This document shows positions 3,181 through 35,410 of a DNA stretch of 64,000 nt, piece after piece. The position numbers were made by a program, and so were the translations under genes. Source of the stretch: Eledone cirrhosa (taxonomy: Eukaryota); contig OZ024745.1 in NCBI GenBank assembly GCA_964016885.1, positions 90,458,001 to 90,522,000 of the forward strand, read 5' to 3'. Position 1 is the stretch's first letter. Every line of letters begins with the position of its first letter. The notes beneath the pieces are model-generated. The model saw only the letters and a program-made list of their open reading frames with translations, was not told the origin of the DNA and did no database searches.

Positions 3181-3296
3181 TTCATTAGTTAAGCAAAACA
3201 AGACCACAAATTTCACAAGGAAGACATTATTAAAAGATTGTCAACATAGTTTTAGTTTAATGTAAGGAATGTAGAGAATAATAATAATAATAATAA
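3181..3296 (-). mobile_element. Distal 3' end of the Penelope-like element at 33366-35410, separated from it by the 30-kb nest
   Basis: Reverse complement of 36000-36085, where the same sequence is contiguous through a short (ATT)n with the pLTR hammerhead tail seen at 33411-33437. Confidence 0.75.
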
Positions 3297-3340
3297 TTGT
3301 TTCTACTTTAGGCACAAGGCCAGCAATTACCCAGTGCATT
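3294..3340 (-). mobile_element. 3' fragment of tRNA-derived SINE with (ATT)n tail
   Basis: ttgtttctactttaggcacaaggccagcaattacccagtgcatt matches the SINE copies at 46588, 54807 and 48358 (reverse). Confidence 0.75.
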
Positions 3341-3396
3341 AATAATAATAATAATAATAATAATAATAATAATAATAATAATAATAATAATAATAA

Positions 3397-4023
3397 AGGA
3401 GACTGTGGCTCACATTGTGTCCGAGTGTAAACACCTAGCCCAGACCCACTATAAGGGCTGGAGACACGATGTGATGGGCAGGGTGATCCACTGGCACCTG
3501 TGCAAAGTAAACAATTTACCACATTCTGAGAAATGGTATGAGCATAGGCCAGAGGCAGTGATGGAGAACAATCAGGTGAAGGTGCTGTGGGATTTTAGGA
3601 TACAGACGGACAAAAAAACTGGAACACAATAGACCTGACCTGGTGGTTGTGGACAAAGAAAAAAGATCGTGTCTTATTGTGGATGTGGCCTGCCCGTTCG
3701 ACACGAGAGTGCAAGAGAAGGAGAGGGAGAAAATTAACCGATACCAGGACCTAAAGTGGGAGGTGAAAAGGATTTGGAACTGCCATGAAGTCAAAGTGAT
3801 CCCGATTGTCATAGGCGCACTGGGGACTATCTCCAAAAGTTTCCAGGGATGGTTAAAGAAAATCGGCCCCTTCACGCTTTTTGGAACGCTTCAAAAGGCA
3901 TGCTTGCTTGGAACAGCAAGAACCCTCCGATACGTCCTGAATATCTGAGGCTGCAGGTAGTGGCTTGATATTCAATCCAACGGACTTTCCAGTTAACCAA
4001 CATCAATGACTGAGATTCAAGGA
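3397..4023 (+). mobile_element. R4/Dong-type RLE non-LTR retrotransposon, family A, copy A1 (severely 5'-truncated, frameshifted)
   Basis: ETVAHIVSEC, RHD, RPDLVVVD, KINRYQDL. 3' UTR near-identical to other A copies; flanked by (TAA)n. Confidence 0.9.
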
Positions 4024-4055
4024 ATAACAACAATAATAATAATAATAATAATAAA

Positions 4056-31177: not shown

Positions 31178-31209
31178 GTTGGATGAGAAACGGGGCAAAT
31201 GACAAAGGG

Positions 31210-33060
31210 TCACTTACCTTGTTCGTGTGGTGAAGGGACAGTAGAACCGTCCCTTTCGCTGGTCATGGGTGTTTCCAAGAGGATATCAGTGTATATCCTC
31301 TTGGTAACCGTCCCTCTAAAGTCTCCAACTGCATTGGGGAATTTTTGTTTTAAAGGTTTGTACTGTTCTAATGAGATGTCGATGATGCTTATGTTTGTCG
31401 GGAGAGTTCTTGGTGTTGGTGGGGTGTAGTAATTTTTTTCCGTGATGTCTGTGTGTTGCTTTATATATTTTATGAGTTCTTTTTTTGCTATGTTTATGGC
31501 TGTGTACTTTTTTTTTGGGGGGGGGTGATTTTGTTGCCGTTTTCTTCTTGTTGCTGTTTGGTGTGTGTGTCTTGTTCTGTTTGCGTTGTTGGTGTTTGTG
31601 GTGGTGTTGCTGTAAGTTTCCTTGCTGCCTTTACCCCTCTTTGTATGCCTTCGCTTTTGGAGGGTGAATCTAAGGTTTTTTTTGTTTTTTGTTTTTTGTG
31701 GCAGACTGTTTGCCACGTCACTCCCGCCTCAAACTCCATGTCGGATTCTGTGACGTCTGTGAGGGGTATGTGCTCCACGGCTGTTGGTGGTGGTAGTGGA
31801 GCCCTCTTCGGCAATGTTGTTGCTGGTGTAGCTATTTCAAATGTAGCTATTGGTGTTGCCGCTACTGATGATGCTGCTTTAGTTATCCGTGGCCTTGGTA
31901 CGGGTGCTACGGACGTTGCCCTCCTACTCACCGTGGAAGGGGCTTCTTCGTTTGTTGCCTGTCCTGCTCTTGGTAGCAGCGGACCAGGTATTGGAAGGAG
32001 AGGGGCCCTCTTCGGTGTCTTCTACGGCAAAAGGCCCTGAGGTGACCTTTCGACCCACAGAGATAACATTTTGGCCGTCTTCCTTCTACACTTATAGGGA
32101 GTTGGAGTCCTTCCTCAAAGTCTATGATATCGGGGATAGCCTCGATACATTCCTGGTCAGTTTGTATAAGCATTTGCATGCCTATACCTGACCAGTTCTC
32201 TCTCCCTATTTTTTCTACTTGCAGCATGGTCGCCCTGTTCTCAATTCCAGCAAGGACAGACGCGGCCAGCCAAGGTATGGGCACGTTGGGTGGTACCTGG
32301 GTCACTTTGACCCTCACAATTTTCTGCCCGCAGTAGGAGGGCACCAAGACTAACTCTTCACTCTTTAGGGTTTCCAAAGAGTGAGACTTTGCCTGCTGGG
32401 GGGTGGCGAAAAGTACGTCTACTGTGGCGTACTTTCTGCCTCGGGTGATGTGGGTTTTGCGTGCCCAGACGCACCCCAAGGCCTTTTGGATTTGAGCCTC
32501 CGTGGCTCTCTCCACTCGATGTGAGATTTTGCTTACGGTGCGGTAAATCACCGTTCGTAGCTGCTGGTCCTTGAAAAAATCGGGTGGAGGTTTCAGGGAA
32601 ACTCTATTTGCGCTTCTTGTCACCATGGCCCTTGCGACTGCCATCTCCTCCTCTGTGACTAACACTGTCTCGATATTTCGGGCGACACCTGCAAAAGAAG
32701 TGGTCCCTTTTTCAGCAGCAGCTCTATTGCTGCCGCTACTGGTCTTACTGGTGGTGCTGAGGTCGCTATTACAGGTATCAGTGTCATTGTTATTGTTTTC
32801 GCTGGTACAGTTGTTGGTGTTGTTTCGTTGATATTGTTGCTGCTGTTACTGTTATTGTGGCTGTTGTTATTATTGTTGTTTTTGTTGATACTGTTCCTAC
32901 TATTATTGTTGTTGTGGCTGTTGTTATTGTCATTGTTATTGTCGTTCTCGACTTTACCGCTGTTATTTTTGGTGTTGTTGTTGGTGATGTTGTTGGTGTT
33001 ATTGTTGGTGTTATTTGTTAATTTTAAATCTGTAACAATCTTTTTTTTCCTTTGTAATAT
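31210..33060 (-). pseudogene. ORF1 gag-like nucleic-acid-binding protein with zinc knuckle (frameshifted, start approximate)
   Basis: CYLCGSKGHLRAFC knuckle in ORF 31928-32665, flanked by low-complexity T/N/P/Q stretches; lies upstream of ORF2. Confidence 0.7.
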
Positions 33061-33365
33061 TTTCGTTTATATTTACCTCCGCTGGAACGCTGTCTTGTTG
33101 ACATACTGATAAAGTCTCCCTCTCTATGTGTTGTCTGACAGCGCTCTCTCTCTATTTTGTGTTATCCATGTTGAAATTTTTCAAAAAATATTTTTACACA
33201 AATACGAATACGACACCCCGTAAAGGGGTGCCGTATTATTTACTAGTGAACCCCTGTATTAGGTGGGTCACTTCTTCTAAACTTTTATCAAATTTAAAAC
33301 TTGAATAAAAGGTTTAGAACGGTTGAAAAAGACTGGAGGCGATAAGAAGCGTGGCTTCACCAACC

Positions 33366-35410
33366 AATAATAATAATAATAATAATAATAATAATAATAA
33401 TAATAATAATGTCCGTTTACAATTGTTTCGCTACTCCACATTATGTTTCTGGATCAAATGATTATAGATCATTATTGATCTGGTTCAGTTGAAGATAATT
33501 AACTTAGGTAAAATTATAGCAGCTCATCGGAACTTCAAAAGGAATATAAATTAAAATTAAGAAAGAATAAGAGAGTATTGAAGTTTGCTTGAAGCATTGT
33601 GGAATAATAAGATATATTTTCTTTAGGTCGTTTTGGAAGCCTCAACAATGCAGATGGGTAATTCTCCGGGTAACATGATCCGGTGGTGAAGAGAGAGATG
33701 TAAGTGAATGTAGAATGAGATGTATGGTGTGTAGAAGAACGTAGGAAAGAGCGTAAAAAATAAAAATAATAACACAAGATAGAGGTACCTTGGGAGAGAT
33801 TTAGTTGTCCCTATATTTCGGATTCACATCCATCAACTGGGGGGTTATCCGGGAGAGGGGTTACCTGTCGGATAGGAGCGATACGTGTCCTCCGCTGTTC
33901 GTTATTTTGAATATCTGAGGTATTCATCAGAGCGCGCGCGCGCGTGAAATGGGGTCGGTCAAGCAGAGGTCGGCGGCCGAAATAGTTATTTTAATTGTGG
34001 GAGTGGGGTGGCGTTAGCTGTCAATCCATTGTATTATCTGCCCGTGTTGGTTTCTGTATTAGCAGTGTTGAATATTGTATTCGTGTGGTGGTGGTAGTAT
34101 TCCCTGCCTGATTGGTGAATGCTACTGTGTGTGTGCGCGCGTGTTGTTGTCACGCTTGTGTGCGTGTGTTGTTGCTTCGTTTGTCTGTATTAGCAGTGTA
34201 GTATATTCGTATGGTGGAATGCTACTGTGTGCGTGTGCGTGTGTTGTTGCCTCGTTTGTTTAAACCAACCACCTCATTTCGCTTCTCTCGGATTTGTTAT
34301 TTATTTGTGGCCCTAGGCGTTTGATCCAAAGTGCTTCCTTTATTCGTAATGTGCCGACGTTTCGTTCCGTCGCTAGCTCTGTAACAATGGGCCTTACGTC
34401 TTTTTTTCCGCATTTGGTTATGTGTTTCCGGAAAGACGAGGTCCTAGTGTTGATGTGCTCCTTGATCCGGATTTGTAGCGGCCGGATTGTGCTACCTATA
34501 TAGTATTGGTTGCATTTGTTACATTCTACCTTATACTCGACGTATGTGCGTAGGCAACAGTTCGTATGGCGCATCGGGCAGTTTCTGAGGGAGCACGCGT
34601 CAGTCGATTTCCCGGGTTTCCTGGAGAGGCATCTTCGCAGAGAGGGGCCTGAGTGGGCCAGATGGATGTCGAGGCCCTCCCTCCGTTTAGCCCTGCGGAT
34701 AGCGTTGGTGGTATTCGCGCCCAGGTGTGGTATTTTAAGGAAGCACTTGCCTTGGGTGTTTCTCTGCTTCTTGCGTCTGGTGTCTCTAATTCTGTTTGTG
34801 AGTTAGGCAGGGTACCCATTCGTCTCCAGCACTTTGAGGAATCGCTTGGAATGGGTGACACCACTCGCGGGATCGCTGCATCTGTTTTTAATTCGCGTGA
34901 TCTCGTTCGTGATGTACTCTCTTTTAGCACTGTTAGGGAGGGTGGACTTGTAGTGGACGAACAGGTCCCTGCATGCTGCCTTGCGGTAGAAGTTGGTGTG
35001 GATCCCTCCCTGTTCCGTGATGTTGATTCGGAAGTCGAGGAGGGCAAGTGACCCGTCGTCGCTGGGGTGTTCAACACTGAAATCAATGTTCTCGTCCGTG
35101 TTGTTGAACGACTCATAGATTTTGTTCGCCATCTCTTGGGAAGATGTGAGGATGAGGATATCGTCCACGTACCTTGAGAAAAAGGCGACGGCGTTGGGTG
35201 ACAGGTGTTGAGTGCCTTGTGCTCGAGGCTGTCCATGTATGAGATCGCTAACACACCCGACAGGCTTGAGCCCATGGGCAGTCTCGAGGTTCACTGGTAT
35301 GTTTGGTCGAGAAATCCTAAGTATGTATTGTCAACGACGATGGATAGGAGTTGGTGGATGTCAGTGGTAGTGAGCCCGAAGCAGTATAGGTCGGTAGATT
35401 GGCCGCGTTA
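33366..35410 (-). mobile_element. Penelope-like element (RT + C-terminal GIY-YIG), 5'-truncated, frameshifted
   Basis: PMGSSLSGVLA, FSRYVDDILI, LALLDFRI, YRKA; YKVECNKCNQYYIGSTIRPLQIRIKEH. Stop at 34260; 3' UTR carries a hammerhead. Confidence 0.88.
33415..33533 (-). ncRNA. Hammerhead ribozyme motif in PLE pLTR (variant core CCGATGA, long stem II)
   Basis: gtt-CCGATGA-gctgct...agtagc-GAAAC-aatt-GTA-aac; palindromic stem III ACAATTGT. Confidence 0.6.

Follow-up and report, generated by a model that had tools for sequence, protein, structure and literature searches.

A 30-kb array of Dong-like and Tx1-like retrotransposons inside one (TAA)n tract of a host repeat in Eledone cirrhosa

Results

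Structure of the array

We analysed a 64-kb stretch of the 3.0-Gb genome of Eledone cirrhosa (contig OZ024745.1, G000:C5:90458001-90522000; hereafter the window), which contains an array of long interspersed nuclear elements (LINEs) joined by TAA repeats. The map was drawn from self-comparison and tandem-repeat scans, and every junction was read. The array occupies 3277-33410 and consists of six copies of a Dong-like family A and two copies of a Dong-like family B, all on the plus strand, together with one antisense Tx1-like LINE and the antisense end of a short interspersed nuclear element (SINE). Its position is interstitial, at 90.5 Mb on a contig of 134.7 Mb. The sole joints between the units are TAA tracts, which number 11, range from 15 to 111 nt and hold 168 units in total. 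Variant units (AAC for AAT) were observed at the start of the A tails, two variant units lie inside one of the tracts, and A4 carries an internal (TAA)4.

Read along the plus strand, the array begins with (TAA)7 (3277-3297), followed by the antisense 42-nt 3' end of a SINE-like repeat (3298-3339, minus strand). A1 (3397-4033) is a young, 5'-truncated copy that differs by 0.3% from a copy on another contig, A2 (4055-7896) is truncated within its 5' untranslated region (UTR) and has a premature stop near 7304, and A3 (7948-9540) is also 5'-truncated. A4 (9651-14547) is a full-length copy of an older subfamily with a broken reading frame, and the 5'-truncated A5 (14633-16107) shows no difference over 582 columns from a copy on another contig. 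B1 (16120-19158) is 5'-truncated with a frame open to its end, A6 (19183-23727) is full length with an intact frame of 1141 codons, and B2 (23756-27431) is frameshifted and lacks about 1265 nt of its 5' end. The last unit is a full-length, frameshifted Tx1-like LINE of 5.9 kb (27489-33367, minus strand), antisense to the Dong copies, and the array closes with (TAA)15 (33366-33410, plus strand).

A4 and A6 have a common 5' end. The truncation points of A1, A2, A3 and A5 correspond to positions 3910, 692, 2941 and 3074 of A6, and those of B1 and B2, measured on a full-length B copy located elsewhere, to about 1900 and 1265, so that all six are different. Over the last 620 nt the A copies showed a divergence of 0.8-7.6%, and B1 and B2 differed by 1.9%. 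A preliminary description of this DNA, made from its letters alone, had claimed eight Dong-type copies of two families lying head to tail on the plus strand with only TAA between them, an antisense Tx1 element, a SINE tail, six 5' truncation points, two full-length copies and differing decay. The junctions bore out this picture and its coordinates, with only small variants of the repeat unit.

The host repeat and the empty site

Both flanks of the array are repetitive, and they proved to be the two halves of one host repeat. The left part of one of its arms (3167-3276, plus strand) lies directly before the first tract, and the repeat continues at 33411-35941 (plus strand), split by a 1.84-kb insertion. 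Exact matches to the host junction were found at 140 places genome-wide. In 20 of the 42 arm junctions read, the sequence that ends at 3276 in the window was followed by the sequence that starts at 33411 after 7-23 AAT-type units. Across the other copies of the host repeat the tract had a median of 9 units and was usually interrupted. These paralogous empty sites indicated that 30.1 kb had been inserted into a seed of about nine units, and that about 160 of the TAA units are new; (TAA)7 and (TAA)15 are the left and right remnants of the seed. Growth of the array from one (TAA)n site, as proposed before, was therefore confirmed, with the addition that the site sits within another repeat and not in unique DNA.

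The host repeat has inverted arms with one such tract in each. The second arm of the window (35939-36080, minus strand), 2.6 kb from the array, holds 11 interrupted units at 35967-35999 and is empty, and thus served as an internal control. The host repeat as a whole (3167-3276 and 33411-36256) usually begins at a (TA)n run, and a scan of one copy found no long open reading frame (ORF); candidates for its identity are a Penelope-like terminal repeat and a foldback element. The 1.84-kb insertion (about 33568-35408) is a Penelope-like element with GIY-YIG and reverse transcriptase (RT) domains and a duplication of about 10 nt, and public contigs show the joined empty form. An inverted pair of a 460-nt repeat, 86% identical (2391-2852 and 36318-36782), flanks the entire structure of host and array.

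Target and polarity across the genome

A 22-mer from the 3' UTR had 8467 exact matches in the genome for family A and 4827 for family B, while the controls had 0. Clustering and flanks were counted on the first 100 of the 8467 A matches, and 95 of those 100 copies were retrieved. Among the 99 gaps, 21 were no longer than 6 kb, compared with 1.1 expected, which excludes chance clustering, and all of these pairs were on the same strand. The clustering was looser at 50 kb (43 gaps versus 8.6 expected). In the same span, 24 of 64 B matches lay within 6 kb of an A match, compared with 1.4 expected, again always on the same strand.

The retrieved copies showed that (TAA)3 or more stood within 12 nt of the 5' end in 72 of 95 cases and within 40 nt in 80 of 95, and a TAA tail was present in 91 of 95. 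This sampled version of the flank and clustering check suggested earlier agreed with the TAA targeting expected of Dong-type elements. As many as 84 of the 95 copies touched another A, B or Tx1-like LINE, and 54 did so on both sides, the commonest neighbours being antisense Tx1-like elements (31 upstream, 34 downstream). Array stacks are the rule in this genome. The array is typical of the genome rather than unique, and the Tx1-like LINE and the SINE are regular members of such arrays and not bystanders.

Polarity was fixed throughout: the Dong-like families A and B read along TAA, and the Tx1-like and SINE units read along TTA. The 5' end abutted (TAA)3 in 2544 of 2769 matches of a sister family of the Tx1-like LINE, and in 98 of 150 for the window's own Tx1-like family, where the 14-mer query also picked up some chance matches. 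In two host arms (L204 and L208), Dong and Tx1-like units were found reversed where the tract switches to (TTA)n, indicating that polarity follows the strand of the repeat and not the host.

Origin of the array units

Divergence and a tree were examined for the 81 copies that were long enough, namely 75 of the 95 and the six in the window. The median divergence was 4.7% within arrays (46 pairs) and 5.4% between arrays (3194 pairs; p = 0.14), and only 1 of 45 array members had its nearest relative inside its own array. The six window copies required six changes on the tree. Truncation points recurred 3 times among 62, compared with 3.5 by chance. No age gradient was seen in the window, since the oldest copy (A4) does not lie at an end and the youngest (A1, A5 and A6) are scattered among the others. 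These results supported the earlier proposal of independent insertion rather than tandem duplication in the window, with each A copy nearer to a copy elsewhere, and indicated that the array is a sink fed from elsewhere and not a self-copying unit. The term 'self-propagating' therefore holds for the target, TAA, and fails for the units, which are supplied by other parts of the genome.

Another copy of the same host repeat holds a 44-kb array (G000:C2:353600011-353645031), and its second arm is empty as well. This array contains six full-length B copies (353.61-353.64 Mb) that are only 0.02-0.18% apart and have equal (TAA)8-9 spacers, pointing to tandem amplification, which likely built the array in part. 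This weighs against generalising independent insertion from the window to all arrays.

Filling of matching seeds

About 140 matching seeds are supplied by the host repeat, so that the effect of earlier insertions on later ones can be read from a natural experiment. The first 100 of the 140 junction matches were read; the filled arm of the window was left out as ascertained and one shared structure was counted once, leaving 98 arms. No LINE unit was present in 88 arms, one unit in 1 arm, and two or more in 9 arms, which held 2, 2, 2, 2, 2, at least 3, 5, 8 and 11 units. The 88 LINE-free arms included 20 with a SINE only and 6 with a rearranged right half. The Poisson expectation for zero, one and two or more units was 66.5, 25.8 and 5.7 arms, compared with the 88, 1 and 9 observed, and the observed filling had a probability of about 1e-8 under a model that lets every insertion add one target equal to the others. 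The filling of matching seeds thus looks nearly all-or-none and strongly non-linear.

We also compared the lengths of the tracts. The longest pure run was 7-29 units in the 7 arms with a LINE directly after the tract, whereas in 57 empty arms its median was 6 (p = 0.0001). Where a Dong tail faces a Tx1-like tail, the median tract was 9 units long (n = 35), and where two heads meet it was 15 (n = 31; p = 0.03). After a Dong tail, the median was 18 units ahead of a full-length Dong copy (n = 16) versus 9 ahead of a truncated one (n = 44; p = 0.0015). Tracts are longer at heads than at tails, so that the tail alone does not account for the long ones. Insertion may favour long tracts, with the cut placed towards the downstream end, or else full-length RNA may carry UAA repeats from upstream along with it. 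The preliminary description held that each insertion regenerates a target in its own tail. Net creation of TAA was upheld (168 units versus a median of 9 at empty sites), and the tail as the main source of long tracts was not.

Element families

The translations of A6 and B1 contain a CX2CX8HX4C knuckle, a conserved R and a PD..D..K nuclease motif, and an RT domain was found by Pfam. At the N-terminus of A6 no CCHH pattern was found, none was conserved across 12 relatives, and Pfam found RVT_1 only. The lack of N-terminal zinc fingers parts R4 from R2, NeSL and Utopia. Utopia carries such fingers (PMC4640811), and the knuckle spacing of the Dong/R4 clade is given as CX2-3CX7-8HX4C (PMC5678591). 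No match named Dong or R4 was returned by the protein search (134 mostly unnamed relatives, up to 66% identity), by Atlas (RVT_1 clusters only) or among solved structures (R2 and L1 only), where the best matches of the Dong-like protein were R2 proteins. Families A and B thus fit a Dong/R4-like assignment by domain layout and target, rather than by a tree with named references.

The proteins of A and B are only 39% identical, yet the two families have the same 5' start and 5' UTRs that are 79-91% alike (91% over about 700 nt with A4; 19183-19570 and 9651-10350), which suggests a swap of the 5' module. The identity of A5 with its copy on another contig points to recent activity of family A. No Rfam match to a ribozyme was obtained at the Dong-like 5' ends; a crude home-made search for a hepatitis delta virus (HDV)-like fold matched 3 of 25 5' ends, inconsistently, and the first 45 nt are closed by a stem of no more than 4 bp.

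The antisense LINE carries ORF1 and, in order on the minus strand, an Exo_endo_phos domain of the apurinic/apyrimidinic endonuclease (APE) type, RVT_1 and zf-RVT, in broken frames; its sister copies have frames of ORF1 and ORF2 size. We take it to be Tx1-like, a label drawn from layout and target specificity rather than from comparison with a named RT reference. Its 3' end and that of the SINE have a motif in common, and this resemblance suggests that the SINE likely borrows Tx1-like machinery.

The (ATAC)n stack and other features

A third family with a restriction-like endonuclease (RLE), about 30% identical to A and B, follows (ATAC)n tracts at 41620-44517 and 56673-64000. It forms a second head-to-tail stack, with (ATAC)n between the units, that runs off the end of the window. 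This family has 4271 exact matches genome-wide, and (ATAC)n flanks 14 of 21 visible 5' ends. An element of 450-470 nt recurs between the (ATAC)n tracts of this second stack (56220-56673, 60342-60815 and 62272-62750) and is possibly the SINE-like partner of this system.

Two arrays of a 25-bp minisatellite, at 38791-40158 and 48931-50201, have 50 and 46 units, are 87% alike and inverted, and lie about 9 kb apart. They are possible arms of a foldback element.

Discussion

Taken together, we consider it probable that the array arose by serial target-primed insertion, that two classes of nuclease acted on opposite strands of (TAA)n, and that the purer and longer tracts left behind gave the process positive feedback. 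Copies made elsewhere would have inserted separately into a seed of about nine TAA units, where the repeat is presumably recognised by two enzymes, the restriction-like nuclease in families A and B and the APE nuclease in the Tx1-like families. With every insertion a tract would be divided in two, and the TAA left behind would be purer and often longer, with units gained at the heads of full-length copies and not only at the tail. LINEs likely insert poorly into the short, interrupted seed, which would make the first LINE insertion rate-limiting and later ones much faster; slow first and fast later insertions would leave mostly empty sites and a few large stacks. Full-length units lying head to tail would then likely be amplified by unequal crossover, which did not happen in the window.

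A broader proposal, to which we give somewhat less than an even chance, is that such sites are microsatellite-addressed, nucleation-limited sinks. Dong (RLE), Tx1 (APE) and SINE elements would cross-feed on opposite strands of (TAA)n, their insertions writing pure target, notably at the head, and thereby turning an inert site into a hot spot that absorbs most later insertions. The mobile host repeat would spread the seeds, an R4-like system would do the same in parallel on (ATAC)n, and the whole would be an interstitial, genome-wide counterpart of TRAS and SART.

Several observations weigh against serial insertion with feedback. As many as 15 of the 95 A copies have no 5' TAA tract, the LINE-bearing arms number only 10 with unit counts that depend on a library of eight LINE references, and a single-Dong arm exists outside the pattern set. 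A LINE may have been drawn to a tract that was already long (preference), or its insertion may have lengthened the tract (addition, or later slippage). The missing Rfam match at the 5' ends also counts on this side. At G000:C3:325438068-325474092 one host copy has an array in each of its inverted arms, of 17 kb and at least 18 kb, and the two face each other; at another locus SINE and Tx1 pieces occur in the second arm, which hints at a regional effect.

This last point leads to an alternative that we regard as unlikely, though the strongest of the rivals, namely TAA-targeted insertion without feedback, in which hits would pile up wherever a region, or an older host copy, happens to be more accessible to insertion or under less selection. 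The doubly filled locus fits this explanation, as do the loose 50-kb clustering of A and the possibility that host copies differ in age, their matches being 91-100% alike. However, the second arm is empty both 2.6 kb from the window array and at the 44-kb array, and the clustering consists of abutting, strand-specific units: all 21 close A pairs, and likewise all 24 close pairs of A with B, share a strand. It is less probable still that several units arrived per event, by template jumping of the RT or from read-through transcripts of an existing array. Arms with exactly two units are common (6 of the 10 that bear LINEs) and singles nearly absent, and tail-to-head joints with short TAA would be the residue expected of such events. 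Against this, array mates are no closer to each other than random copies are, truncation points are not repeated from one locus to another, old and young subfamilies occur together in the window, and the Tx1-like units of opposite polarity are mostly full length (28 of 33 junctions of the Tx1-like 5' end with the tract).

Two further explanations appear very improbable to us. Local tandem duplication or unequal crossover does occur in this genome, as the near-identical B copies of the 44-kb array show, but tandem duplication, along with array-to-array read-through, was rejected for the window on its differing truncation points, its differing tract lengths and the nearest relatives of its A copies, which lie elsewhere, provided that the assembly is correct. 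An assembly artefact, in which reads were mis-joined across TAA tracts, has an equally small share of our confidence. Where reads and contigs were aligned at the two edges of the array, they pass over the TAA tracts and accumulate from copies at other loci, with no junction spanned. Random mis-joins, however, would not restore the matching halves of one host repeat at the outer flanks, the tracts measure 15-111 nt, and polarity is consistent over dozens of loci.

Dong of Bombyx mori, DongAg and DongBg are R4-lineage elements that target TAA repeats (PMC3812793), and an HDV-like self-cleaving 5' ribozyme has been shown for B. mori Dong and R4 (PMC3774820). Families A and B are like Dong in their single ORF with RT, CCHC knuckle and restriction-like nuclease, in the TAA on both sides and in their fixed orientation. 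They differ in occurring as thousands of copies, mostly in mixed stacks, and as two families with a common 5' UTR; B. mori Dong has a ribozyme, whereas none was found here with Rfam and the crude HDV-like search. Since both the TAA targeting of Dong and modular microsatellite arrays are already known, the array itself is an expected result of a known habit.

The preliminary description likened the array to HeT-A and TART. HeT-A, TART and TAHRE extend chromosome ends, always point the same way and have no target repeat between units (PMC5537684). Head-to-tail mixed arrays with 5'-truncated copies are common to both, but here units of both polarities have inserted internally and show no age order; the antisense Tx1-like and SINE units, the internal position of the oldest copy and the location of both array ends in one host repeat led us to reject the likeness. 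TRAS and SART of Bombyx and Tribolium insert into telomeric repeats in opposite orientations (PMC10088271, PMC5537684), and so resemble the present system in having two non-LTR groups inside one short repeat, in opposite orientations and in arrays. Their target is telomeric and both belong to the R1 clade, whereas here the target is an interstitial microsatellite, A and B have their RLE at the C-terminus, the RLE and APE classes come from distant clades, and the system has no function at telomeres. SaTar arrays of guayule, rice, sorghum and citrus are made of small non-autonomous DNA transposons in (TA)n, about 30% of them linked (PMC5907723); they too are interstitial, non-nested linear arrays of mixed families with microsatellite joints, but the units here are autonomous LINEs, spanning tens of kb in fixed polarity, with 84 of 95 copies linked. 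The array is therefore closer to TRAS/SART or plant SaTar than to HeT-A/TART, and a member of neither.

MoTeR arrays at Magnaporthe telomeres, for which both sequential insertion and recombinational amplification have been described (bioRxiv 10.1101/845669), also consist of head-to-tail full and truncated copies parted by target repeats, but they are telomeric and are described with one polarity. Among the microsatellite-specific Tx1 elements are Kibi on (TC)n, Koshi on (TTC)n and crocodilian elements on (TTCC)n/(TTTC)n, together with the Tx1-mobilised SINEU (PMC4494074). They likewise combine an APE LINE on a microsatellite, a SINE with the same target and tandem copies ascribed to sequential insertion; the target here differs in being (TTA)n, used also by Dong in the opposite polarity. 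Octopus repeat papers report abundant recent Dong-R4 and L1-Tx1 elements and unexplained hot spots (PMC13282606, PMC8967140, PMC9115989), and the word 'array' was not found in two of them (PMC13282606, PMC8967140). Within our literature coverage, which left out Repbase, subscription papers (notably Kojima and Fujiwara 2004) and the supplements of PMC4494074 and PMC4640811, we found no mixed Dong/Tx1 arrays on TAA and no (TTA)n-specific Tx1, nor any published account of opposite-polarity targeting by Tx1-like and Dong elements, of near all-or-none seed filling, or of the longest tracts lying at heads and not tails.

What the analysis adds to known biology is that Dong and Tx1 use one microsatellite in two polarities, that matching seeds fill in a near all-or-none manner, and that the window also holds a parallel system on (ATAC)n. 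If the proposed mechanism is true, there would be a Tx1-like lineage with the target (TTA)n, for which no description was found, thousands of LINE insertions would be parked in safe sites of their own making, and transposon hot spots would have a cause at the level of sequence.

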